NCBI GenBank assembly: GCA_963422375.2
Contig: OY729428.2
Location: 1,568,001-1,632,000 of the forward strand
Direction of reading: 5' to 3'
Length of the DNA stretch: 64,000 nucleotides
DNA from: Bryobacterales bacterium
Lineage (GTDB): Bacteria; Acidobacteriota; Terriglobia; Bryobacterales; UBA6623
Shown one piece after another: positions 3,727 to 58,595 of this stretch. The notes beneath the pieces are model-generated. The model worked only from the letters and a program-made list of their open reading frames with translations, was not told the origin of the DNA and ran no database searches. Each line of letters starts with the position of its first letter. Position 1 is the stretch's first letter. The translations under genes were made by a program, and so were the position numbers.

Positions 3727-3821
3727 TGGCGGAAGCTAGTGGGAGTCGAACCCACCCTTGGCGCGGAGCACCAAACAACGGTTTTGAAGACCGGGCCCGA
3801 CACCGGCCGGGATTAGCTTCC
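3727..3821 (-). tRNA. selC: tRNA-Sec (anticodon UCA)
   Basis: Reverse complement GGAAGCTA...CCGGT-CTTCAAA-ACCG...GGTTCGACTCCCAC-TAGCTTCC-GCCA: 8-bp acceptor stem, 6-bp D stem, long variable arm, TCA anticodon, encoded CCA, 95 nt. Confidence 0.95.
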
Positions 3822-3852: not shown

Positions 3853-4914
3853 TCATGCGACGTGCGCGCCTTGGGCCTCGACATAGGCGGCATACAGGCT
3901 CTGGCTTGCCGTCATGAACAGACGGTTTCTCTTGGCGCCGCCGAAGCAGACGTTGGAGCAGATTTCCGGGAGCCTGATCAAGCCGATCCGAGCGCCGTCC
4001 GGGGCGAAGACATGCACGCCGTCGTAGCCGTCCCCTACCCATCCGGCCGAGGACCAGATGTTGCCGTCGGTGTCGCACCGAATGCCGTCGGCTTGGCCTG
4101 CCTGTTCGAATCCGTCCATGCGCATGGACGCGAAGCTCCGGCCCTTGCGAAGAGTGCCGCCGCCTTCCACGTCCCAGACCTTGATCTGGCGCTCGGCCTC
4201 CGGGTAGTGCGAGGCGCCGGTGTCGGCCACGTACAGCAGCTTGTAGTCGGGCGAGAAGCATAGACCATTGGGCTTGTAGATGTCGTCTGCGACGAGATCC
4301 ATCTTGCCGGTGGCTCCGTCAATGCGGTAGACGGCCTCCTTGACTTCCAGAGGCCCCTTGTTGCCCTCGTAGTGCATCAGGCTACCGTAGCCCGGGTCGG
4401 TGAACCAGATGTTCCCCTCGGGGTCGACAACGACGTCGTTCGGGGCGTTCAGGGGCTTGCCCTGCCACCGGTCTGCCAGCACGGTCACCGTTCCGTCGTG
4501 CTCGTAGCGCACCACGCGGCGATTGCCGTGCTCGCAGGAGAGCTGCCGGCCCGACCAGTCGAACGTGTTGCCGTTCGAGTTACCGGAGGGATTCCGGAAG
4601 ACGCTGACGTGTCCGTCCTCGTCCAGCCAGCGCATCTGCACGTTGTTCGGGATGTCGGAATAGACCAGATACCGTCCGACAGCGTTCCAAGCGGGGCCCT
4701 CCGCCCAGAGGGTGCCGACATGCAGCCTCTGGATGGGCGTGTTTCCGAGCTTGTACTTGTCGAAGCGCTGGTCCAGCGAAACGATGTCGGGATCGGGATA
4801 CCGCGTCGGGCTGGCGTTGGTCCAGTCGCGCTGCGCCAGCGCTTGGACGGAAGCCGCAGCCACGCCCGCGACCGAAGTCACGAAAGTGCGACGATTGATG
4901 GGATGCGATGCCAT
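3853..4914 (-). CDS. SMP-30/gluconolactonase family protein with Tat-like signal
   Basis: WAEGPAW, SDIPNN, NSNGNT, NAPND, PNGLCFSPD and ADGIRCDTDGN motifs; N-terminal NRRTFV twin-arginine signal from ATG 4914. Confidence 0.92.
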   Translation of the reverse strand: MASHPINRRTFVTSVAGVAAASVQALAQRDWTNASPTRYPDPDIVSLDQRFDKYKLGNTPIQRLHVGTLWAEGPAWNAVGRYLVYSDIPNNVQMRWLDEDGHVSVFRNPSGNSNGNTFDWSGRQLSCEHGNRRVVRYEHDGTVTVLADRWQGKPLNAPNDVVVDPEGNIWFTDPGYGSLMHYEGNKGPLEVKEAVYRIDGATGKMDLVADDIYKPNGLCFSPDYKLLYVADTGASHYPEAERQIKVWDVEGGGTLRKGRSFASMRMDGFEQAGQADGIRCDTDGNIWSSAGWVGDGYDGVHVFAPDGARIGLIRLPEICSNVCFGGAKRNRLFMTASQSLYAAYVEAQGAHVA

Positions 4915-5683
4915 TGCAATGCAACTGTACCAGATCGAACGTCTTGACGGCGAAGTACGCAAACCCGGTTGGTACAAGCGGGCGGGATCCAGCATGCCGG
5001 ACAGGCCAGGCTAGCCACGCCTTCGATGCCGGCCCCGGACAAACCAGCCGAGCACATCTCAGGGGACGGAGAAAGCCGCGATCGGAATCAGCCCGGCGTC
5101 GACTGGACCAGACCTCCGACGCCCGTGGTGTTCAACGCATTCCAAACCTCGTCACCGTACAGCATACGAATCAAATCGGCTGCGCATGTTGCACCAAGGG
5201 AGACCCTGCTGGTCCGACCGCAAGAATGACTTGCCAACTCTAGGCGAACCCTCGGCGGACGCATTTCGTCTTGGAGAAGGAAGATTCCGAATCGGGTTTA
5301 CCAAGGACCGACATTGATTGGCCGGATAACCGGTGGCACGACGGGACGACTAATTACGAAATATCGAGTTTCACACAATTCTTGAGAGCCTTAAAGAAGC
5401 CGGAATGTCACTTGAATCTGCGCTGCGACGCGAACTGCTCGACCATCCTTCATGCCTGGTGCGAACTTCCATTGCTTGATGGCTTCAATTGCCTTTTCGT
5501 CTAGACCGTGGCCCAAGGTGCGTAGTACACGGATGTTGTGAGCCTTTCCGTCTTCCCACGCCCATGCAACTCCGAAGTGCGACACGCGCCGAGCCACAAG
5601 ATGGCAGGGAGGGGAGAGGGGGGGCAGCGAGCGGTGGTGTGGCGGCAGTAGGCTGGTAGGTGCTGGAAGGAGCAGGGAGGCGG

Positions 5684-6742
5684 ATGCGGAAGAGCTACAC
5701 GCACGTGAGGCAGGAGGAGCGCTGCCGGAGCGAGACGCTGCGGGCGGCGGGCTGGGGAGCGGACAGGATCGCCGGGCAGCCGGGCCGCAAGCGGGCCACG
5801 ATCTACCGGGAAGTGGGCCGCAACGGCCGACCGGCGGAGGGCGAGCGCGCGGCGAGCTACAGCTTGGGGAGCGCGCAGGAGCGCGCGGAGCGGCGGCGGA
5901 GCGGCGGCGGCGCGCGGCGTCGTGCCGGCCGCGCCAGCTGACGTCGGCGCTGCGGACGCGGAGCGAGGACTGCCTGCGGCAGGACTGGAGCCCGGAGCAG
6001 GTCGCGGCGCGGCTGCAGCGGGAAGGGGCGCTGGAGATCAGCCCTGAACGGATCTACCAGCTGGTGCGCGCGGAGCGGCGGCAGGGGGGCCGGCTGTACC
6101 GGCACCCGAGGCAGGGCGGCCGCAAGCGCGTGCGGCGGGTCGGCCGGACGGCGGGCCGCGGCCTGATCCCGGGGCGCGCGGACATCGCGGAGCGCCCGGC
6201 GGAGGCGCGAGCGCAGGCGCGCGTCGGAGAGCGGGAGGTCGACACCGTGATCGGCGGGCAGCGCCGCGGGGCGCTGGTGACGCTGGTGGACCGGTTCTCC
6301 AAGTACCTGCTAGTGCAGCCGGTGAGCCGGCGCACGGCGCAGCTGGTCGGGGCGGCGATGACGGCCATGCTCGCAGGGAGCGGGGCCGTGACGCACACGC
6401 TCACGGCCGACAACGGCAAGGAGTTCGCGGCAAGGAGTTCGCGGCAAGGAGTTCGCGGCAAGGAGTTCGCGGGGCACCGGGAGGCACCGGGAGGTGGCGC
6501 AGCGGCTGGGGGCGGGCTTCTACTTCGCGCGGCCCTGCCACTCCTGGGAGCGCGGGCTGAACGAGCCTGCCAACGGGCTGCCGCGGCAGTACTGCCCGCA
6601 GGGGACGGACCTGCGGCGGGTGGACCCGGCCCGGGTGCGGGAGGCGCGGGACCGCCTGAACCGGCGTCCGCGGAAGGTGCCGGGCGGGCGCACGCCGGAG
6701 GAAGTCTTCCCGGCGGAGCGGGAGCGGGTGCCGCGGGGCTGA
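5684..6742 (+). pseudogene. IS30 transposase, multiply frameshifted
   Basis: HTH start MRKSYTHVRQEER...RATIYREVGRN, WSPEQV, EVDTVIG, LTADNGKEFA, HSWERGLNE and LNRRPRK motifs spread over several frames. Confidence 0.9.
6414..6492. repeat. Tandem 14-bp repeat x4 (CGGCAAGGAGTTCG) followed by a 10-bp duplication (GGCACCGGGA)
   Basis: Read directly: units start at 6414, 6428, 6442 and 6456; the 10-mers start at 6473 and 6483. Falls in the DNGKEF motif of the IS30 transposase. Confidence 0.95.
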
Positions 6743-7305
6743 GGCAGGGCTGGCAGCCCGCCGCGGGGACAGGGGCGCGGGGGAGCTGCGCCCGGACAGG
6801 CCCGGAGGGTCCCCGTTCCGGAAACGGGGCACGCATGCCCGCCTGCCCGGGACGCGGCCCCCGCTTCGGCCCGGCAGCGGCTTGTCCGGCGCCGCTGGAT
6901 CTGCTACTGTGGTCCTAGTATCCCAGCCCACCGCCCCTTACCCGCGTGTCGCACTTCGGAGTTGAATGGGCGCCAAATTTCAACTGCCAGCATCACCGTG
7001 CCCTGAATCTTGGCTTTGCGTGCTTGTTCGGAATACTCTGGTTCCACTTTGAACAGGAGGCGGGGACTAGTGACAGATCCGCCAATGGTATGCCCATTAG
7101 GAGGGTCTGTTACAGAATTCGTCCCGCTATCCGGTGTTTCTATAGTACCGTCATCCGGCAGGATCACCAATGTCACAAGTACCTTCGGACCGCCGTCTCG
7201 ACGAGCCACGTCATTCGAAAGGGAATTATATATCTGAGTGCCGAGGCAACCGATTTTGCAAATTATCAGTCCATAAATTAATTTCATATTTCTTCCGGAG
7301 ATCTG

Positions 7306-7335
7306 TTGACAGTTGGTGGATTATTTTGGTAGAAT
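7306..7335 (+). promoter_or_regulatory. Sigma70-like promoter of the IS1595-B transposase
   Basis: TTGACA-18 bp-TAGAAT with an extended TG. Both hexamers and the spacing are conserved in the copy at 42568-42597 although the spacer sequence differs. Confidence 0.65.
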
Positions 7336-7358
7336 AGTTCCAATATATGAGGTCGTCT

Positions 7359-8315
7359 ATGAAGCAGAAAGGTCCCGGGAAGTGGTTTCGTAAAGGCATC
7401 ACTATGATTGAAGTGATCGCCATGTTCCGCGATGACGAATCCGCGGAAAAGTGGTTCGCCTCCATGCGCTGGCCGGACGGTCCGGTATGCCCCCACTGCC
7501 GCGGCTCCAGCGTGCAGTCCGGCACGGCCCACCCTTCGATGCCGTACCGTTGCCGCGGCTGCGGCAAGCGCTTTTCGGTGCGCACCGGCAGCGTGATGGC
7601 CGACACCAAGCTCGGCTACCGCACCTGGGCCGTCGCCCTGTTCCTGCCGACCACCGGCATCAAGGGTGTCTCGAGCATGAAGCTGCACCGCGACCTAGGC
7701 ATCAGCCGGAAGTCGGCCTGGCACCTGGCGCACCGCATCCGCGCGTGCTGGGAGCGGGATCAGGGCCTGTTCGCCGGCCCGGTGGAGGTGGACGAGACCT
7801 ACGTCGGCGGCAAGGAGCGCAACAAGCACGAGAGCAAGAAGGCCCGCGCCGGGCGCGGGCCCGTCGGCAAGACGCCCGTGGCGGGGGCGCGGGACCGCGC
7901 CACGAACGCAGTGGCCGCGCGGCCGCTGCCGGGCACCGCCAAGGGCGACCTGCAGGGCTTCGTGCGCGGCCGGGTCGCGCCGGGGGCGCAGGTCCGCTCC
8001 GACGAGGCGGCGGCCTGCGCCGGCATGGAGGAGTTCTCGCACGAAGCCGTCAGGCACTCCGGCGGCGAGTACGTGCGCGGGGCGGCGCATACGAACGGCA
8101 TCGAGTCGTTTTGGTCCCTGTTCAAGCGCGGCCTGTACGGCACCTATCACCGGATGAGCGTCCGTCATCTCGGCCGCTACCTGACGGAGTTCGCGGGACG
8201 GTGCAACGACCGCGACTGCGACACGGCGGAACGGATGCGGCGCATGGCGCGGGGCCTGGTCGGCCGGACGCTGACCTGCCGGCAGCTGACCGGCAAGGCC
8301 GCGGTCGCGGCCCGA
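7359..8315 (+). CDS. IS1595 transposase (type B); native stop mutated so the frame reads through to 8933
   Basis: RWPDGPVCPHC, VEVDETYVGGKERNKH, HTNGIESFWSLFKRG. CGA at 8313-8315 corresponds to TGA in the other two copies (23993-23995, 43586-43588). Confidence 0.88.
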
Positions 8316-9039
8316 GCGGCGCCCTCCGAGCTGAGCGCCGCAGCCCGCTGCCGACGCACTCTTCACGCTCGATGCGCTTCACGCTCGGTGCGCGGGTCGC
8401 GCCGGCTCTGGAATCCCCCGGCGCGACCCGCGTCCGGCCCGGCCCGTCCATGCAGGCCGTCGAGCGCCGGGGATCCGCTGTCTTCGGCCCTCGGAGGGCA
8501 CGCAATCAGCTTGCAAGGGGCGCCCTCCACCGCCAACCGGATTCCACCAGGCATGCGAGAGGGCCTCTCTAATCCGTGCCTCGTCCATTCCGCTGGCAGG
8601 CTCGATTCAGATACGATCCCACTTTTCCGTGCCTACCGCGGCCGCATTCGAATGACCCCAGCCAGACGCCGACCTCCCTGCTCAGAGCAGTTCTCGTCGG
8701 ACATGGCGTTGTCGGCACTCAGATATATAATTCCCATTCGAAAGACCTTGGGAAAACGGAATGACAGTCAATTCACCGCTGTATGTGCCGGGAACAAGCC
8801 CAATACCACTAGCGCTAACTCCTACTGTCGAAACTCCGTCTCCCGCAATGGATTGACCTTGTGGATAGGCACGAAGCCACCCTTGGTTGGAATCAAGGTA
8901 ATAATTTGTCGATCCCTGACCCTCGTGAACTAGAGTGACTTGCTGTTGAGGTGCTTCACGCCCCAACAAGGAGACGAAGGTCAACGCTCTGGATATCACT
9001 TGGGTCACTCTTGAGGGTGGGCTAGAATCCATTCGGATA

Positions 9040-10071
9040 CCTGATTACCAACGAACGTCAGCCGAGGATATGCTATACTGAAGGAGGTCGGAAATCTCTG
9101 ATAGGAAAGGGGATAGCAGATGAAAAGCAATCGCGTGCAATTCCAGCAGGGACTCAGCCTGGGCAAGTTCCTGCAGCGCTACGGCAGCGAGGGGCCATGC
9201 GAGCACGCCGTCTTCAAGGCCCGCTGGCCGGACGGCTTCCGCTGCCCGGAGTGCGGCTCCCGGCGGCACTGCCGCATCCGCTCCCGCAAGCTCTGGCAGT
9301 GCCATGCCTGCCACCGCCGGACCTCCCTCGTCGCCGGCACGATCTTGGCCGCCACCAAGCTGCCGCTGACCGTCCGGTTCCTGGCGCTTCACCTGCTGAC
9401 GCAGGGCAAGCACGGCGTTTCGTCGCTGGAACTGGCGCGGCAGCCGGGGGTCAGCCGGAACACGGCCTGGAAGATGAAGCACAAGCTCTTGCAAGTGATG
9501 AAGGAGCGCGACGAGCGCCTGCCGCTGGGCGGCATCGTGCAGGTGGACGACGCTTACTGGGGCGGGGAGCGGACCGGCGGCAAGCGCGGTCGCGGCGCGG
9601 CGGGCAAGACGCCGTTCGTGGCCGCCGTGCAGGTCACCGCCGCCGGCCAGCCGGCAAGGATGCGCCTGAGCAGCGTGGCGGGCTTGCGCAAGAAGACGCT
9701 GGCAGCGTGGGCCGGGCGGCACTTGCAGCCCGGCACGGAGGTGCATTCCGACGGCTTGGCCTGCTTCCGGGGCGTGGCCGACGCCGGCTGCGAGCACGTG
9801 CCGGCCGTCACCGGAGGCGGGCAGCGGAGCTGCGGGGATTCCCGCTTCGTCCGGGTCAGCACGATGCTGGCGAACGTCAAGCAGTCCCTGGCGGGAACCT
9901 GCCATGCGCTCGACGGCAAGCACCTGCCGCGCTACCTCGCCGAGTTCCGCTACCGCTTCAACCGCCGCTACGATCCGGAGGCGCTGGTCCCCCGCCTGCT
10001 CCACGCCTCCGTGCGCACCCCGCCCAGGCCTTACCGCCTCCTAACCTTGGCGGAGTCTTGGGGTAATCAGG
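9040..10071 (+). mobile_element. IS1595-family element, type A, copy 2
   Basis: IRs CCTGATTACC / GGTAATCAGG; 8-bp TSD TTCGGATA (9032-9039, 10072-10079). Confidence 0.96.
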
Positions 10072-10088
10072 TTCGGATAAGGGCTTGA
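9120..10088 (+). CDS. IS1595 transposase (type A), full-length frame with probably damaging substitutions
   Basis: Continuous 322-aa ORF with Zn ribbon and DDE motifs. One base is missing relative to copy 1 just before the right IR, so the TAA in the IR is out of frame and the ORF ends in flanking DNA. Confidence 0.88.
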   Translation: MKSNRVQFQQGLSLGKFLQRYGSEGPCEHAVFKARWPDGFRCPECGSRRHCRIRSRKLWQCHACHRRTSLVAGTILAATKLPLTVRFLALHLLTQGKHGVSSLELARQPGVSRNTAWKMKHKLLQVMKERDERLPLGGIVQVDDAYWGGERTGGKRGRGAAGKTPFVAAVQVTAAGQPARMRLSSVAGLRKKTLAAWAGRHLQPGTEVHSDGLACFRGVADAGCEHVPAVTGGGQRSCGDSRFVRVSTMLANVKQSLAGTCHALDGKHLPRYLAEFRYRFNRRYDPEALVPRLLHASVRTPPRPYRLLTLAESWGNQVRIRA

Positions 10089-12435
10089 ATCGTGCCGTGA
10101 ATCGGTGCGTATGGTGTATGGACGACAAGGCCTATGTTATAAGATCCAGGCCTGAGCGGAGGGGTCGACCGTTCAGTGATTGAGATCGACTCACTTGCAC
10201 CGCGTGTGGTCGCCTCATGATCGGCGTAGAATATAGGAGTGTTACGGTCTTCGGCATAGTCCCACGAAACTGGAATGTCTCGTCGTAGATAAAGATCGAC
10301 CTCTGCCGAGGAGTTGTTTTCGGAACGGAATGTAACCGTCAGCTCGTTCGCACCAGGTGGTACATGGACACGATAGCTTCCCTCTTGAAAGAATGTCTCA
10401 AACGTGAAGTTCGTACTTGGGAGGAGCACGCGCTCGCGTATGCCTGGACGCAGCTCCATTGCACGCGAGAACACCGCCTCAACATGCGTCGGGCCCTCAA
10501 TTGCAACCTGCTTTCTTGATAGGATTCCACTCAAATCACCTTCCAATCGTACGAAGCTCCATCCCGAGTTGGGTCGTGTCTTTATGGAGACGACGTCGCC
10601 TGCAGCATAGAACCCGTCTCCCGACGGCGGGTCATACTTCGCCGGAATCGACCGGTCTGACGCTCGTGATGACCTTGTGCTCTGTCAATGCTGTGAGTGT
10701 GATCTCGCCACCCGAAGCTGGCACGTGAATTCTGTGCGAAATCTCACCTCCATCGCTCCAGCTCTGAAAGCGATGACGCGTTCCGTGAGTGTGTCCCGTC
10801 TGTAGTTCCGGAACACTCAATTCAAGCCCGTTTCGGTAGTGCTGAGGCTCCAAGGCAATCGGCGTGTAGTTCCACCAATCGTTAATATTAACGCGAGTAG
10901 GATCTATGTTCGATCTGATCAAGAACTGCGGACCACGGCTGAATACAGCTCTGTATTCTGCGGAATGATGCAGGATAAATGATGCTGGATTTGCTGACAG
11001 ACCTTGGCGCGAAAAACCCCAAGATCCACCACTCCATGATCGAAATGTGTAGTACTGGGGTTGGTTGGGTCTACCCGAAATCTGAACCGGCGTTCGCAAT
11101 GTGTAGAAACCGTCCGGCGACTCTGGGGCTACTCTTACAGTACCGACATCTTGGGGCTGTGAAGACGCTTCGATTCTATGCTGGACAATGAAGTTCGCCT
11201 CAATCCAAGTGTTACTTCCATCGAACGATATGACTTTCCTAGAGGAAGAGCCGCCGAAGTTCCATCGGCCGAAAAGAGAGCGACTACTGCCGTTCGTCTG
11301 TACTACAGGAGCTTCCAGTACATGCTCGCTACCAACTGACCAGCGGAATTTCTGTGGCGTGGTTACGCGGCGACCATCGACAACAATATCCAACCCAGGG
11401 GGATTTGTCGACAAGGTAGTTACTAGTGGAACTCTTCCATAGAGGCGAGCAACACCGTCGACATCACCGGCAGACAGGTATCCTTCACCGGCAGACAGGG
11501 ATACGCTTCCGACAAGCATCCCCGGAGGGATGGTCTCCAAGACTGGCTTGCCATTGCGGGAGAACAAGTAGGGACTGTAATGCATGGTTGAGGAAAAATC
11601 GTATGGTCCTGTTGCAGGGTGGACTGTAGGGAGAACCGAAAGTCTGCCTGCAGGGTCAAGGTTGTTCTCCAAGACCATAACATACGCTTCGCGGTCTTCG
11701 CGCTCATGCTCGTGCCAAAGACCTACAGCGTGGCCGATCTCATGCACTGCAGGATCGACTCCGCACCTTGCCATGAGGTTGATGACTTGCTCACCCCCGA
11801 TCCTTCCGACGTGCGAGTTACACGTTGAGTTGTGGTGTCGGAATCGAACATAATCGTCTTCGACTGTCCGTTCGATTAGCGTGATTGCTGTTCTTGTGTT
11901 CCACTCTGAAATTGCGTCTAGGATTCTTTGCGTATCGGGTACGTCTGAGTCAATAATATACGGGACAACGCCGTTTGGCCACAAGGCATCAGAGTCCGTG
12001 ACTGAAACGTTCCGAGGCGGGATCCAGTTACGTTGCTTGGGCGGAACGGCTCTGATTCCTGCCCTCTGGACTTCTTCGGCCGTCCCAAGGATCATATCGC
12101 CGTGGACCGCCATCCCGTCGACAACGCGATAGGGCAGAGTCCGTCCACGGAAGACAGTGACGCCGTATTCTTTCTCTCCGGGGTTCTGTGAGGCAATGCT
12201 GCCGTGATCGAGTTGTGATTCGAACGGTGATGCAATTCTCTGCTGACCGAATCCACTGTCAATACACAATGCAGCCGCTAGGGCGGGCACGACGCCCACG
12301 TAAAGCCAACTTCGAAACCGGCGAATGACTGGCCCGTAACTTAGCTTGCAGTGCAAGCCAATCTCTATTATATATCATCGCAACTCGTAGCCTCGATGCG
12401 CGATTCCTGTCGCCGCAGGCTCCACACTTGAGTCG

Positions 12436-13725
12436 CTAAAGCAAGCGGAAGCTCACTTGAATCTGTGCCGCGACACGGACTGGCTTGCCATCCTTCTTTC
12501 CGGGCGAGAACTTCCATTGCTTGACTGCTTCGACCGCCTTCTCGTCCAAGCCAAGTCCCAGGCTGCGCAGCACGCGGATGTTGTGCGCTACTCCGTCCTC
12601 CCACACTTCCACGGCAAGCATAACCGTCCCTTGGTACTTCGCCTTGCGCGCCTCTTCAGAGTATTCCGGCTCTACCTTGTAGAGCAGGCGCGGACTGGTC
12701 ACGCCGCCGCCGATGCGGAACACGCCGCCGCCGATGCCACCGCCGGAGCCGGGTCCGACGCCCGAACCCCTCCCGGACCCGACACCCGTGCCGCGTCCGG
12801 ACCCGATGCCGCCGCCCGTTCCCGGACCGGCCGACGGCGGTCCGTCCGCCCCGAACGGATCGCCGAATACCGAGAGATCCACATCCGGCAAGCTGATCTC
12901 CGGGGGCACGCGAACCGTGGGCTCGACGGCGAGCTTCGGGTTCTCGTTCCGGATGACTGGCGTGGGAGGGGCCAGCTGCGGCTCCAAGGAGAATCGCGGC
13001 AGCTTGCCGCGGCTCGCCGGAAGCGGGGAGTTGGCCCCGCCCCCGCCTCCGCCCCCGCTGTCCCGCGGATCCGGCCGTGCGGGCGCGCGCAGCTGGGCAA
13101 GGTAGGGCGATACGTCCACGGGGATGATCAGCGTGACCGTGCCCCGGTTCAACTCGCCGAGGTCGCGGTCCGGGAGTCCGAACATCAGCAGGACGAAGAG
13201 CAAGTGAGCCGCCAAGGTAACCGCCATGCCTTGCCTACGGTGGCTCAAGTCCCCCCAGATCTCCTTGACCCGGACCGGCTTCGAGCTCAGCTTGAGCGGC
13301 GGGGCTTTCCGGAACTCCCGATCGAGCCTGTAGCTTTCGTGGATGCCGGACCACCACGGCATCGCCAAGGTCCCGAGCCCGAGCGGAGGCAGGCTCGGCT
13401 CGCCGGGCAGAGGCGGCCGGTACGAAGGCAGGGGAGGAAGCCCCTTGGCCTCGCTTAGCGTGCGGAGCGTTTCGGTTATGCCAAGCCACCAAGGCCTGCT
13501 CAGCGAATAGACGTTGGGATCCCTGAAGTCCGTTTCGCCTGGCTCGGCCGGGCGATACGTCGGAAGCGGGCCGAACTTCGGCGGCTGAAGGATCTCTCTG
13601 GCCGAGTCGAGGCAAAGCGACCACCACGGCTCGTGGATGGAGTCGATCACAAGCGGGCCCAGACCCCGGTGTTGCGCTAGTCTCTTTTCGACGGCTGCCG
13701 GCTGGTTGGAGTCGGACATGTCCAC
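12436..13725 (-). CDS. tonB: Energy transducer TonB
   Basis: Single TM with His (AVTLAAHLLFVLLM), Pro/Gly-rich linker, C-terminal KVEPEYSEEARKAKYQGTV...GLGLDEKAVEAVKQWKFSPG. Confidence 0.93.
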   Translation of the reverse strand: MDMSDSNQPAAVEKRLAQHRGLGPLVIDSIHEPWWSLCLDSAREILQPPKFGPLPTYRPAEPGETDFRDPNVYSLSRPWWLGITETLRTLSEAKGLPPLPSYRPPLPGEPSLPPLGLGTLAMPWWSGIHESYRLDREFRKAPPLKLSSKPVRVKEIWGDLSHRRQGMAVTLAAHLLFVLLMFGLPDRDLGELNRGTVTLIIPVDVSPYLAQLRAPARPDPRDSGGGGGGGANSPLPASRGKLPRFSLEPQLAPPTPVIRNENPKLAVEPTVRVPPEISLPDVDLSVFGDPFGADGPPSAGPGTGGGIGSGRGTGVGSGRGSGVGPGSGGGIGGGVFRIGGGVTSPRLLYKVEPEYSEEARKAKYQGTVMLAVEVWEDGVAHNIRVLRSLGLGLDEKAVEAVKQWKFSPGKKDGKPVRVAAQIQVSFRLL

Positions 13726-53814: not shown

Positions 53815-55467
53815 ATGCCGTTCCCACTGCCGCCACAGCACGGCCTAGCCCGGCCGGGGGCGGATGAGCGGGCGCGCCGCGCCGCCTACATGCGCCGACT
53901 CGCGGACGAGATCGACGGCCTCGAGCGGACCGCCAGGATGGGCGGCGGGCGGCGGGCCGTCGAGCGCCAGCGAGCCAGGGGCAAGATGCTCGCTCGCGAG
54001 CGGGTGGCCGCCCTGCTAGACGAGGACGCGGAATTCGTCGAGCTCGGACTGCTCGTCGCCAGCGACTCCTACGACGGAACCGCGCCCGCCGCCGGCGTCG
54101 TCACCGGCATCGGCACGGTCGGCGGACGCCCGGTCGCGGTCATGGCGAACGACGCAACCGTGAAGGCCGGCAGCTGGTTTCCGGAGACGGTAGGCAAGAT
54201 CCTCCGCATCCAGGAAGCTGCCATGCGCTGTCGCATTCCGATCGCGTACCTAGTGGACTCCGCCGGAATCTTCCTGCCGATGCAGGACCGCACGTTTCCC
54301 GGAAAGCACGGGGGCGCGCGCATCTTCCGCAACTGCGCGCACATGCGACAGCGGGACGGGCTTCCCCAGTTCGCGGCCGTCATGGGCCCGTGCATCGCCG
54401 GCGGGGCGTACCTGCCCGCACTCAGCGACGTGATCCTGATGGTCGAAGGAAGCAGCTTCATGGGCCTTGGGGGACCGAGCCTCGTCAAGGGGGCGATCGG
54501 CCAGGCCGTGGCGGCCGAGGATCTGGGAGGAGCCGCCCTTCACACTGCTCGCAGCGGCGTGGCGCACTATCGCGCCCCGAGCGACGCCGCTTGCATCGAG
54601 CTTCTGCGCGAGCTGCTGCTGGACTTGCCGCGGCGAGACGGGCCGAGGCGTGCGGCGACGGCAGCGGACTCGGATTTGTGCCTCGACGAGATCCTGCCCG
54701 CCGACCGTCGACTCCCCTATGACCTTCACGAGGTGGTGCGCGTCATCGTCGACCGCGATGGGTGCGTGGAGTTCATGGCCGACTACGCGCCCGAGCTGCT
54801 CTGTGCCAACGCGCGCGTCCAAGGCTGGCCGGTCGGGCTGATCGGCAATCGGCGCGGCCTGTTCCGATGCGAGGGCGGGACGCGCATCGGCGCGATCCTG
54901 TACGCGGAGACCGCGCGCAAGGCCGCGGAATTCGTGCGCAAGTGCGACCGGCAGGGGCACCCTCTGCTGTACTTGCAGGACGTGACGGGGTTCATGGTGG
55001 GCCCGGATGCCGAGCGCAGCGGCATTATCCGGGCCGGCGCGGACATGATCGAAGCGATGGCCGTCGCGCGGGTAGCACGGATCGTTGTCACCCTGCGCCA
55101 CGCCAGCGGAGCAGGCTACTACGCCATGGCGGGCCAGGGCTTCGACCCGGACTTCATTTTCAGCTGGCCGTCGGCCCGGGTCGGCGTCATGGAGGGGGAC
55201 TCGGCCGTGCAGGCCCTGTACGGCTCGTCGCTGGATGAGGCGGCCGCTGCCGAAGGCGGCGTGCCGCCGGAGCTGCGCAGGGAAATCGAGCGGACGCGCC
55301 TCGAATACGAGCGGATGCTAGATGCGAAATGGTGCGCCGCGCGGGGTCATGTCGACGCGATCATCCTCCCGCGGAGGACCAGGGCGGTGGTCGCCGCCTG
55401 CTTGGCAGCCGCTCATGCCAGCGGGTACGTGCGCTCCAGCCGGGCCGACGATGCCATGAGACGCTAG
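53815..55467 (+). CDS. Acyl-CoA carboxylase carboxyltransferase (beta) subunit
   Basis: GKMLARERV, ANDATVKAG, LVDSAG, GPCIAGGAY, LQDVTGFMVG and ASGAGYYAM. Confidence 0.92.
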   Translation: MPFPLPPQHGLARPGADERARRAAYMRRLADEIDGLERTARMGGGRRAVERQRARGKMLARERVAALLDEDAEFVELGLLVASDSYDGTAPAAGVVTGIGTVGGRPVAVMANDATVKAGSWFPETVGKILRIQEAAMRCRIPIAYLVDSAGIFLPMQDRTFPGKHGGARIFRNCAHMRQRDGLPQFAAVMGPCIAGGAYLPALSDVILMVEGSSFMGLGGPSLVKGAIGQAVAAEDLGGAALHTARSGVAHYRAPSDAACIELLRELLLDLPRRDGPRRAATAADSDLCLDEILPADRRLPYDLHEVVRVIVDRDGCVEFMADYAPELLCANARVQGWPVGLIGNRRGLFRCEGGTRIGAILYAETARKAAEFVRKCDRQGHPLLYLQDVTGFMVGPDAERSGIIRAGADMIEAMAVARVARIVVTLRHASGAGYYAMAGQGFDPDFIFSWPSARVGVMEGDSAVQALYGSSLDEAAAAEGGVPPELRREIERTRLEYERMLDAKWCAARGHVDAIILPRRTRAVVAACLAAAHASGYVRSSRADDAMRR

Positions 55468-55514
55468 GGTGGCGACGAGTCGTCCCCCGATTCCCGTGCG
55501 AGAATAGCGCAGAA

Positions 55515-58500
55515 GTGGCAATTTCAGCGACTCCCTGCGGCCTCGCGCGGCTGGCGGGGGTTTCTTGGGCAACTGTTGCGGTGCTGGCCGCCGCGACCGC
55601 GGTTGATCGTCGGGTCGCATGCGTGGCACCGCCCACGGAGCGGGAAGCGATTTTCCTGCACCAGCAGCGCATGCTGCGCGAACCAGCTCTGGCCGCGCGC
55701 GGAGAAACGCTACCCCGATCTCCGCTGCCGTCCCCACGGGAGGAATCCGGAATCGCGCTAATCAAGGCCGGTCCGGCGGTCATGGCTCCGCCGAACGAGT
55801 TCGATTTGTCGGGGATGCGGATCTCTATCGCGAGCGGACCGGCTGGCTTGACCGTTAGCTCGACTCTCGTCGGGACAACAGCCGAGCTTCCGGAGGTCGG
55901 GATACCGCTGACACTGGAAGACGACGACTACGCTGTAATCGAACTGCCCTTCTCGTTTCCCTACTACGGGCAGGGCTACACCAGAGCCTTCGTACATTCC
56001 GACGGCAATATCAGCTTCCGGTATCCCGAGAAGACGTCGACCCCCCGCAGTTTCTCGCGGGCCGCCGGCGGACCTCCTCGAATCGCTCCCCTGTTCTCCG
56101 ACTTGGATCCGAGCAAGGGCGGCAGCGTGCGGGTCGCTTCGCAGGGGGACCGGGTGCTCGTGACCTGGGATGGGGTGCCTGAATTTGTCGAGAACGGCGT
56201 CGGAGATCCCCAGACCTTCCTCGCTGTCCTGCGGGCCGACGGCACCATCGACTTCCAATACTCCAACGTGAACCACCGGGCCGCTGTTGTTGGCATATTT
56301 GCGGGTGTCGCCGAGCGAGACGCCCGGCCCGTGGACTGGAGCGAGACGGCCTCGATGGCCGTCGATGGCGCCCCCATCCTAGCCGAGGTCTTCACGGACG
56401 ATGTCTCGCTGGACGAGTACGGCGTGGTCCAGGAGTTCTTCCGGGCGCACGAGGACGCCTACGACACGCTGATCGTGTTCAACGACCTCGATCTCAATGC
56501 CAGCGAATTCTCGCTCGCGCACGCGTTTCCCATCCGCAATCAGGTCATGGGAATCGGGGAGTACAGTCGCGAATTCGGCCACTGGTTCGGCTCCCGCCGG
56601 CGCCTCTCCGCCTTCGTCAACATGGGCTCGGTCGAAGACTACCCAGTCAACCCGCTCGCGCCGATTCCAGGCCTGCGGCACGCATCGCTGCTCACGATTC
56701 TCGCGCACGAGGTCGGCCATCGATTCCTAGCCTACCCGTCATGGAAGGACCCGGAGACCGGGGAGCGATCGCGTTCCCTGTTGGGCCGCCAGTTGTCGCA
56801 TTGGAGCTTCTTCTTCAATTCGCAGGCGTCCGTGCTCGAGGGCAACCTGATCCGCGATCACGGCCCCGACGCGCGACCGCGGTTCGAGACCGTCGCCGCG
56901 ACGCAGTCCTACAGCCCGCTAGACCAGTACCTGATGGGACTGCGCGACCCTAGTGAGGTTCCACCGACATTCTTGGTAGAGAGCCCCGCGGGCGCGCACC
57001 GGCTGGGCTCGGCCGATCGTTCCCCTCAAGTCGGCGTCCGGTTCGACGGCGTTCGCAAGGAGGTCCGGGTGGAGGACATCATCGCCGTCGAGGGACCACG
57101 GCGGCCCGACTCATCGGTCTCGCAGCGCCACTTCCGCCAGTGCTTCGCTGTGGTGGTTCGCGACGCCGCCGGCCCGAGGAGGTCGGTGATACGGAAGATC
57201 GAGCGCTTGCGCGCCAACTGGCGGCACTTCTTCGCGGCGCAGCTCGGATCTCGGGCCACCGTGGTCACGGATCTGACCCGGATGCTGGACCTGTCGACGT
57301 GGCCGGCAGGGGGAGTGGTTCTCGGCACCGCCGGCACGGCGCAGGTCGTCATCTCGGAACCGCTGGACACGGACCTGCTCGTCTGGCTGTGGCAGGACGA
57401 GCCGATCGCTACGGTCCCGGCCTCGGTGACCATCCCGGCCGGCGAGGATCGCGTGGAGTTCGAGATTCTCGGCCTGGAGGCGGGCACGACGACACTCGAG
57501 GCGAAGGCCAGCGAGCCGGGATTCGATCACGCCGTGACCCGCCTCAACGTGAAGGAGGGCCTGGCTGGACTGGAGGTTGTCCCGATCCATCCAGAAGACC
57601 TGCATGGCGTCGCAGGCGTCCCGCTGCCGCACGCGCTGGCCTTTCAGGTGCGCGACTACAATCTCGTGCCCTACAGCGGCATCGAGATGGGCTTCAGGGC
57701 GGGCGGCGCGGGCGAGGTGACGGTCGCGACTTCCACGACCGACGCGTGGGGCATTGCGACAACGGGCTGGACGCTGGGTCCCGAGCACGGCCAGCAGATT
57801 CTCGTCGCGAGCATCAAGGGCGTTGCGCTCTCCTCCCAGACGGCCGCGTTCGCGTCGCCCAGCGTGCCCCGTATCGCGCCTCCTATCGCCGTCAATGCGG
57901 CCAGCGGGGAAGCGCCGATGCCGGGCGCGGGACTCGCGCCGGGCAGCTTGGTGACAATCCGTGGCGTCGGGCTAGCCTCGGAGTCTGCAGAGGCGGACAC
58001 CGACCTAGTGTTCGAGAATCCGGCGCTGCCCTTCGAGCTCGCCGGAACGGGAGTTCACGTGGCCGCGGTAAAGGCCCCCTTGGTTCGCGTGTCGCCGGCG
58101 GAGGTTACCTTCCAGGTCCCGTTCGGCGTCGTCGGGCCGTGGGCGGACGCACTTGTCTCGACGCCCTACGGACGCAGCCAAGCGGTCAAGATCCCAATCA
58201 GCCCGACCCAGCCGGGGCTGTTTCCGGGCAGAGTGCTTTCCGGCAATCTCGTTCCGGGAATCAAGGCCCCGGACACTTCTCGCGTGATGCCCGCCTCACT
58301 GCCCCGAGCGGGCGGTCCGTTGGAAGTGTTTGGTACCGGCTTCGGAGCAGTCACGCCGGCCGGAAGATCCGGGTTGCCCGGGCTGGAGGAGCCGAAGCAG
58401 CGGGTGATCGCCGAGACCAGGGCGTGGATTGACGGGCGCGAGGTCGAGGTCGTCGCGAGCGAGCTCGCTCAGTGGGAGGCCGGCGTCTACAAGGTCGTCC

Positions 58501-58595
58501 TGACCGCTCCGGCCGACCTCGATCCCGGCCGTCACCGGGTCGTCCTCTCGGTCGGAGCGGTCGAGAGCAACGAGGTGGAGTTCCAGTCCGAGTAA
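55515..58595 (+). CDS. Large secreted protein: nidogen-like region, HExxH metallopeptidase, Ig-like domain and Solibacter-type (TIGR03437-like) C-terminal domain
   Basis: LPFSFPYYG, IAPLFSDLDP, LAHEVGHRF, YSPLDQYLMG and VNAAS...LAPGSLVTIRG.GL...QVPF...VFGTGFG...GVYKV. Start uncertain. Confidence 0.8.
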   Translation: MAISATPCGLARLAGVSWATVAVLAAATAVDRRVACVAPPTEREAIFLHQQRMLREPALAARGETLPRSPLPSPREESGIALIKAGPAVMAPPNEFDLSGMRISIASGPAGLTVSSTLVGTTAELPEVGIPLTLEDDDYAVIELPFSFPYYGQGYTRAFVHSDGNISFRYPEKTSTPRSFSRAAGGPPRIAPLFSDLDPSKGGSVRVASQGDRVLVTWDGVPEFVENGVGDPQTFLAVLRADGTIDFQYSNVNHRAAVVGIFAGVAERDARPVDWSETASMAVDGAPILAEVFTDDVSLDEYGVVQEFFRAHEDAYDTLIVFNDLDLNASEFSLAHAFPIRNQVMGIGEYSREFGHWFGSRRRLSAFVNMGSVEDYPVNPLAPIPGLRHASLLTILAHEVGHRFLAYPSWKDPETGERSRSLLGRQLSHWSFFFNSQASVLEGNLIRDHGPDARPRFETVAATQSYSPLDQYLMGLRDPSEVPPTFLVESPAGAHRLGSADRSPQVGVRFDGVRKEVRVEDIIAVEGPRRPDSSVSQRHFRQCFAVVVRDAAGPRRSVIRKIERLRANWRHFFAAQLGSRATVVTDLTRMLDLSTWPAGGVVLGTAGTAQVVISEPLDTDLLVWLWQDEPIATVPASVTIPAGEDRVEFEILGLEAGTTTLEAKASEPGFDHAVTRLNVKEGLAGLEVVPIHPEDLHGVAGVPLPHALAFQVRDYNLVPYSGIEMGFRAGGAGEVTVATSTTDAWGIATTGWTLGPEHGQQILVASIKGVALSSQTAAFASPSVPRIAPPIAVNAASGEAPMPGAGLAPGSLVTIRGVGLASESAEADTDLVFENPALPFELAGTGVHVAAVKAPLVRVSPAEVTFQVPFGVVGPWADALVSTPYGRSQAVKIPISPTQPGLFPGRVLSGNLVPGIKAPDTSRVMPASLPRAGGPLEVFGTGFGAVTPAGRSGLPGLEEPKQRVIAETRAWIDGREVEVVASELAQWEAGVYKVVLTAPADLDPGRHRVVLSVGAVESNEVEFQSE

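Follow-up and report, generated by a model that had tools for sequence, protein, structure and literature searches.

We describe here a fusion gene found in a stretch of 64,000 nucleotides from the genome of a Bryobacterales bacterium (assembly GCA_963422375.2, contig OY729428.2, positions 1,568,001 to 1,632,000; hereinafter, the window), whose product combines a metalloprotease of the astacin family (M12A) with TonB's C-terminal domain (TonB_C). The fusion is real, rare and lineage-restricted, a new architecture made of known parts, and it is dead in this genome, where the gene is split by three insertion sequence (IS) elements and one frameshift; being dead, the window copy matters as a pointer to its family. 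What is new is a swappable TonB_C tail, which resembles the housekeeping tonB, appears from its substitution pattern to be under purifying selection, and is not inherited with the protease core.

The interrupted gene

The gene lies on the minus strand and comprises about 995 codons (Table 1). The initial annotation had claimed that excision of one IS30 and two IS1595 elements restores the reading frame, and that a frameshift near position 10634 links a 574-aa astacin open reading frame (ORF) to a 420-aa continuation; both claims held. All three elements, whose transposase families were assigned by Pfam, have terminal inverted repeats and identical flanking target-site duplications (TSDs), which are exact, while pieces 2 to 5 of the host gene, 1263 nt in total, are phase-continuous and, when joined, yield 420 codons and a stop codon with no internal stops. 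If an X is put in at each of the four breaks and the window protein is read through, it follows five intact fusions from relatives colinearly across each break.

Matches of the separate pieces to Pfam follow the expected order of domains: Astacin (E = 2e-31), Flg_new_2/InlB B-repeat (8e-6), BACON_2 (1.5e-3, below the cut-off), and the two halves of TonB_C on either side of the IS30 element (7e-4 and 1e-13). Piece 5 and the 3' end of tonB, which lies upstream, share 76% identity in DNA. The five host pieces are low-GC (GC 0.51-0.54; GC content of third codon positions, GC3, 0.44-0.54); GC3 of tonB is 0.81.

Table 1. The split gene, its fragments and the inserted elements (positions in the window)
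Feature	Position	Strand	Content
Split gene	between tonB (12436-13725) and gluconolactonase gene (3853-4995)	-
5' part, 574-aa ORF	10632..12356	-	signal-like N-terminus; pro-segment (aspartate-switch-like GDM motif); catalytic domain (astacin); beta modules (InlB-B-like); frameshift at end
Zinc-binding motif HEIGHAVGLWHEH	11706..11744	-	family-specific Glu after third His; found by motif scan
Frameshift	10630..10636 (~10634)	-	also in independent contigs
Piece 2	10080..10633	-	InlB-B-like repeat and PPC-like jelly-roll domain
IS1595-family element A	9040..10071	+	8-bp TSD TTCGGATA
Piece 3	8744..9039	-	BACON/PapD-like immunoglobulin (Ig) domain
IS1595-family element B	7221..8735	+	8-bp TSD ATTCGAAA
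Piece 4	6976..7220	-	Ig domain end, linker, TonB_C codons 1-32
IS30-type element	5559..6972	+	own transposase broken; 3-bp TSD CCA
Piece 5	5391..5558	-	last 55 codons of TonB_C and stop
Housekeeping tonB	12436..13725	-	80 bp upstream of split gene; transmembrane (TM) anchor, then Pro/Gly linker and TonB_C

The initial annotation had allowed for a misassembly. Contigs of four sequencing runs (X1, X2, X3 and X5, from two studies, of which one may represent the source sample) agree with the window at all six IS-host junctions and across the frameshift, with 0 differences. As the same breaks are present in the contigs of four runs, misassembly or sequencing error is ruled out, and the window copy truly is a pseudogene. 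Among the contig matches listed there was no exact IS-free joint, although rare alleles drop out of contigs and would be hidden there. Runs X6-X8 yielded short low-depth pieces only, the Hi-C run X9 gave 0 matching reads at a sampling of 1 in 100 reads, and there was no RNA run among those listed with the sequence.

The window copy has two further, small lesions absent from the initial annotation: 21 bp (7 aa) are duplicated in tandem close to where the catalytic domain ends, and the pro-motif lacks one residue before the G. The genome is IS-rich, the three elements producing 131, 100 and 24 BLAST hits longer than 500 bp. All three insertions are downstream of the frameshift (0 in the 1722 bp before it, 3 in the 1263 bp after it), which would occur by chance with a probability of about 0.08. 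The 574-aa fragment retains the signal, the pro-segment and the whole catalytic domain and, judging by this content, may be a still-working truncated protease. Positions 11165-11417, in the middle of the astacin gene, have a 253-bp copy, 98% identical, about 97 kb away (G000:C2:1677094-1677346); the copy has unique flanks and lies about 5 kb from a gene of a TonB-dependent transporter (TBDT).

Domain structure and assignment to the astacin family

The architecture given in the initial annotation was borne out both by the Pfam matches and by an AlphaFold model of the intact fusion G043: after a signal peptide-like N-terminus come the astacin domain and InlB-B-like beta modules, then a PPC-like jelly roll and a BACON/PapD-like Ig domain, with TonB_C at the end. 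The model, based on a 50-row alignment, has a mean predicted local distance difference test score (pLDDT) of 85; a single-sequence model of the C-terminal third was discarded (pLDDT 34). The modelled catalytic domain is superimposed on BMP1 (3edg) with Z = 24.8 and root mean square deviation (rmsd) 1.8 over 186 aligned residues, and the last domain on the FoxA-bound TonB (6i97_E) with Z = 11.7 and rmsd 1.9 over 88 of 90 residues. The BACON part resembles PapD/ASH-type Ig folds (Z = 12-14), and the PPC-like part resembles clostridial collagen-binding domains of ColG/ColH with middling scores, shared with other jelly rolls (Z = 10.2-10.6). These fold assignments are predictions, as is the single N-terminal hydrophobic stretch without a membrane anchor.

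The hallmarks of astacins listed in PMC9848320 are the zinc motif with its Glu, RXDR, SXMHY and the GD of the pro-segment. The window copy carries HEXXHXXGXXH with the family-specific Glu, a motif shared without change by all 50 of the 50 proteins aligned. The EXXRXDRD motif reads EHEREDRE in the window, the last D being conservatively replaced by E, and R-x-D-R is invariant in the alignment, as are S, M and Y of the Met-turn with its Tyr ligand (STMHY in the window). The G-D of the pro-segment is also invariant, within an HxGDM motif whose animal counterpart is FXGDI, and its Asp would be responsible for latency. The signal peptide and all these motifs are shared with BMP1/tolloid, crayfish astacin, the bacterial flavastacin and myroilysin, and Legionella LegP (the RXDR motif as XXRXDR[D/E]). 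Unlike these astacins, the fusion has an InlB-B/PPC/BACON stalk ending in TonB_C, and only two Cys are invariant in its catalytic domain, yielding one disulfide pair and not the two seen in crayfish astacin; two disulfides are typical of astacins and were not required in the screen of the review cited (PMC9848320).

The profile matches BMP1 (2e-48) far better than myroilysin (6e-6). When scanned with the LegP model NF045530, whose equivalog cut-off is 300, the window piece and three of the intact fusions scored 142-173 bits, so that identity with this Dot/Icm effector is ruled out. By its motifs and predicted fold the fusion protein belongs to M12A, and zinc endopeptidase activity is predicted.

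In the hydropathy scan, the only peak above 1.5 is N-terminal in the window copy and in three of the five intact fusions; the exceptions are G043, with no such peak, and P0005, with a second one in the C-terminal strand of the Ig domain. The TM peak of the native TonB is 2.17, and the fusions have no segment of comparable strength. An energy-transducing TonB is ruled out, as no TM anchor like that of the native protein is present; a fusion protein without the anchor may still bind like a TonB.

Intact fusions and their distribution

The astacin-TonB_C fusion, which the initial annotation had reconstructed from fragments, exists in relatives as single ORFs carrying both domains, five intact proteins of 966-1186 aa being found; TonB_C as a separate gene, which the initial annotation had named as a refuting outcome, was not encountered in the searches made. 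Three ORFs with Astacin, Flg_new_2 and TonB_C (G008, 966 aa; G019, 986 aa; G043, 1011 aa) were located by crossing the places of astacin relatives with TonB_C matches in genomes of the same genus, and two more came from a protein collection (P0002, 983 aa; P0005, 1186 aa). The TonB_C profile (PF03544/TIGR01352) scores 68-80 bits in the intact fusions, over the cut-off. Broken or partial copies are the window copy, G007 (the 5' end cut by an IS30-like element), G023, a remnant in G002 and the tandem paralogue (A) in G019; P0007 is a partial record that stops where TonB_C begins.

The fusion was seen in seven of the 31 genomes of this Bryobacterales genus, and in three of them it is whole. The N-terminal part is much more common: relatives were found in 22 of the 24 same-genus genomes first drawn and in all six further ones, in one as a fragment only; 28 of 30 genomes of the genus and, across the order, 73 of 201 have a Pfam Astacin match. 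The relatives are called Bryobacterales metagenome-assembled genomes by source names and record titles; such genomes probably come mostly from marine sponges. TonB_C was observed in none of the 40 astacin ORFs from 40 fetched loci of other genera and in none of the 120 shorter astacin proteins among the matches listed; the search of the protein collection was limited to shared-word sensitivity, which leaves room for fusions in distant phyla, and the ESM Atlas gave no usable match.

Public protein records already show both Pfam matches. The initial annotation was aware of no described M12A-TonB fusion, and indeed the pairing was not found in the literature searched, nor was any paper on TIGR03437; subscription journals and supplements and, for the pairing, InterPro architecture tables lay outside this search.

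Two intact paralogues on the same chassis are found in this genome (G000:C2:1416387-1419536 and C2:26761-29430), one having a different tail of about 145 aa of an unknown family and the other stopping after the Ig domain. In P0005, TonB_C is followed by a beta-rich module of about 70 aa, which by eye resembles the repeated C-terminal module of a trypsin-like protease at the G043 locus (L091:4879-6852).

TonB_C as an interchangeable tail

In 69 proteins of the family, the region after the Ig domain is TIGR03437 (n = 26), TonB_C (n = 7), a long Ig-like region (n = 8), another module (n = 1), or is short or absent (n = 27); among 140 zinc-motif proteins, five carry TonB_C. The family has several tails that can replace one another, TonB_C being one of them and TIGR03437 the commonest: acidobacterial proteins with the TIGR03437 (Soli_cterm) tail have the same astacin-InlB-PPC-BACON chassis, and differ from the fusions in that TonB_C takes the place of that tail. 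Many of the 40 astacin ORFs of other genera also end in a TIGR03437-like manner (8 by profile, others by eye). Astacins of another genus in the family (L157, L158, L160, L161) end, by eye, in NHL-like repeats, a further type of tail. As regards the initial annotation as a whole, its architecture and its fusion stood; what it did not contain is that the copy is dead, that most members of the family have no TonB_C, and that the tail is swappable.

If the fusion had arisen once and had been inherited with the core, the tailed proteins should form one clade. On the core tree the seven TonB-tailed proteins need seven changes, at least five of them forced by strongly supported branches, which is no better than for shuffled labels. 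The single ancestral fusion, with the seven tailed proteins and three remnants held together, was rejected on the core (p = 1.6e-63 in the approximately unbiased, AU, test) and also on the PPC and Ig part (p-AU = 3.9e-6); the trees, quick ones under LG+G4 with redundant rows dropped, comprised 42 of the 69 rows and 41 rows, respectively. Since the one-clade tree is rejected, the tail has been gained or swapped repeatedly. Linkers before TonB_C differ between the fusion groups, of which there are about four (the window; G008/G019/P0002; G007; G043/P0005). Pairing of the window copy with G043 or P0005 was rejected on the core tree, and orthology to the G043 fusion at the same locus was rejected as well (p-AU = 2e-4), the G043 copy being also inverted; in the PPC and Ig part the window copy is nearest to G023, weakly.

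The appended TonB_C is 70-84% identical to that of the housekeeping TonB of the genus over the whole domain, including the last strand, which pairs with the TonB box, and both have a WEDG signature, which is lacking in three outgroup TonBs examined for it. With 87 columns, the TonB_C tree does not separate donors for the fusions, and it allows the domain itself to have a single origin. Strong support places two other appended copies with the tonB clade of their own genome, and therefore fresh capture does happen. The upstream housekeeping tonB is likely to represent the ultimate donor lineage, and most likely the tail was gained several times via duplication of the 3' end of tonB or of one among its many derived copies, replacing the ancestral TIGR03437 tail; repeated capture, transfer of the tail from paralogue to paralogue and repeated loss can be told apart only in part.

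Between the window TonB_C and the native tonB, the proportions of differences are 0.09-0.10 at nonsynonymous sites (pN) and 0.73-0.80 at synonymous sites (pS). A very recent local duplication of tonB is rejected, as synonymous sites are saturated. The ratio of nonsynonymous to synonymous rates (dN/dS) between fused and native domains is 0.17 in G008 and 0.31 in G019, dS being saturated for G043 and G007. On these estimates the appended TonB_C is under purifying selection, and the domain of the window copy would have diverged long ago under constraint.

The same TonB_C ends other proteins of the genus, of membrane-anchored or exported types: kinase-PEGA (Ser/Thr), caspase with FGE-sulfatase, TPR and TlpA-like (thioredoxin-like) proteins. 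The WEDG-type domain also ends a TrbI-like protein and an unknown family of about 350 aa; the loci of these other carriers are L025, L026, L027, L028, L058, L059, L092, L098 and G000:C2:2798732-2800819.

The gap between tonB and the gluconolactonase gene is an insertion site. Among the 19 loci of relatives that span it, the astacin fusion is present in G043 only; there (L091:4473-16007) the gap contains the inverted fusion, a trypsin-like gene and an MA-peptidase/TPR gene. In G041 (L092) it contains another TonB_C gene, and in G007 (L043) the 3' end of tonB recurs beside tonB as a recent copy in inverted orientation.

Possible role of the tail

The genome has 70 matches to PF25183, more than 50 of them full-length, which are Oar-type TBDTs. 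In 15 such transporters aligned, a CarboxypepD_reg N-terminal extension (NTE) is followed by a TonB-box-like strand, clear in 14 of them. It is known that the last strand of TonB_C pairs with the TonB box of transporters, that soluble fragments from TonB's C-terminal domain (CTD) bind TBDTs, with higher affinity when these are loaded (PMC11658791), and that the NTE and plug of Oar bind TonB CTDs (PMC6434023).

We suggest, with a probability of about one half, that the intact fusion is a soluble zymogen of the periplasm, which uses its tail to dock, without being energised, on TonB boxes of the Oar-type transporters. Bearing a signal and no anchor, it would be exported to the periplasm and would form its disulfide there; the two invariant catalytic Cys are consistent with an oxidising compartment. 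The tail would dock by beta-strand pairing, preferably on loaded or active transporters, and with no coupling to ExbBD the protease could hold on and could not pull. Once docked, it would cut either the incoming polypeptide or the exposed N-terminus of the receptor. Processing of exported cargo, also proposed in the initial annotation, has less support than the periplasmic role.

Several observations weigh against such docking. The fusion genes are not tied to one receptor: a TBDT gene is near the G023 copy, and none was seen in the stretches read around the window, G008, G019 and G043 copies. The modelled similarity of the PPC domain to collagen-binding domains suggests an extracellular, not a periplasmic, substrate. 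Part of the purifying selection may be older than the fusion, should another accessory gene with TonB_C have been the source of the domain. Finally, half of the copies found are broken (5 broken vs 5 intact), and therefore the fusion is dispensable.

The last point is shared by an alternative in which the tail is a neutral by-product: in IS-rich genomes the 3' end of tonB would be a hotspot of duplication and insertion, landing in frame on neighbouring accessory genes that then decay. It agrees with the recent duplicates of the tonB 3' end seen in G007 and a G018 kinase, with the IS counts given above and with the position of two fusions between tonB and gluconolactonase; the G023 fusion has a TonB_C remnant 38 bp upstream. 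We nevertheless consider this unlikely, as amino acids are conserved while synonymous sites are saturated, the junction is always at the same domain boundary, after the Ig domain, and the fused clade G008/G019/P0002 has kept its tail over cores that are only about 52-55% identical.

A slightly less probable alternative is that TonB_C works, but with another partner, tethering the protease to peptidoglycan, ExbD or a TolB-type protein, or is a decoy that throttles transporters independently of proteolysis. The fold and conservation of TonB_C indicate a working domain and leave the partner unspecified. The TonB CTD binds peptidoglycan, and its free periplasmic fragments inhibit transport. It also contacts ExbD and homodimerises (bioRxiv 10.1101/2021.12.08.471779). 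Against this, the TonB box is the best-established partner, and the identity with the native TonB reported above covers the whole domain, the pairing strand included.

Improbable, in our opinion, is the variant in which TonB_C is a self-delivery tag, so that the periplasmic zymogen, once docked on an Oar-type transporter, would leave the cell by this route to digest an extracellular, possibly host collagen-like, protein. In Myxococcus xanthus, Oar, which has the same CarboxypepD_reg NTE as the transporters considered here, exports the protease PopC in a TonB-dependent manner and needs its own TonB box (PMC6434023); the tail replaces TIGR03437, which is the usual last domain of the family across the order, the modelled PPC domain folds like those of ColG/ColH, and the catalytic domain is nearer to animal astacins than to myroilysin. 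However, the similarity to Oar/PopC, a protease associated with a TBDT, is here a prediction, only the type of transporter being shared: PopC, a cargo, has no signal peptide and is not known to carry a TonB domain (PMC6434023), while the fusion itself carries TonB_C. The fusion is also multi-domain and about twice the size of PopC (50.8 kDa; PMC11658791), its occupancy of TonB boxes would compete with the energised TonB needed for export, and the same TonB_C is present on membrane-anchored proteins, which cannot be exported. Another export route is possible, the genome having two secretins and a GspE/PilB-like ATPase that scores under the cut-off for GspE.

Fusions of TonB_C with M56 peptidases are membrane peptidases of the BlaR1 type. 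TonBs with extra domains, namely M56 peptidase-TonB_C, CarboxypepD_reg-TonB and DUF4488-TonB, have been listed in Bacteroides as uncharacterised (PMC10350073). The astacin fusion is similar to them in that TonB_C is appended to an enzyme or a binding domain, and unlike the M56 fusions it is a metzincin of the soluble kind, its N-terminus being signal-like, its TM anchor absent and its tail polyphyletic within one genus.

Almost the only known role of TonB_C is that of the end by which an energised membrane protein pulls. A soluble enzyme with a repeatedly acquired TonB_C that appears to be selected would be a natural experiment on its second use, docking of effectors on transporters. A broader and rather doubtful generalization is that in this genus the CTD of the housekeeping TonB is a transferable address tag, by which proteases, kinases, caspase-domain and redox proteins would meet the 50-plus Oar-type transporters, and which on the astacin would replace TIGR03437 as the sorting tail, stationing the protease at the pore or sending it out. 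If so, TIGR03437 would be a candidate sorting signal of Acidobacteria. Tailed and tail-less sisters on one chassis (P0005 vs its TIGR03437-tailed relatives; G043 vs the tail-less ones) make the question testable, and also give a handle on the unknown TIGR03437 domain.

Other features of the window

TIGR03437 has 13 matches in this genome; in the window, a 1088-aa ORF on the plus strand (55329-58595) has a C-terminal domain of this type and no Pfam match. A tRNA-SeC gene is located just downstream of the gluconolactonase gene (3727-3821, minus strand), and a further, broken IS1595 copy occupies positions 941-1899.

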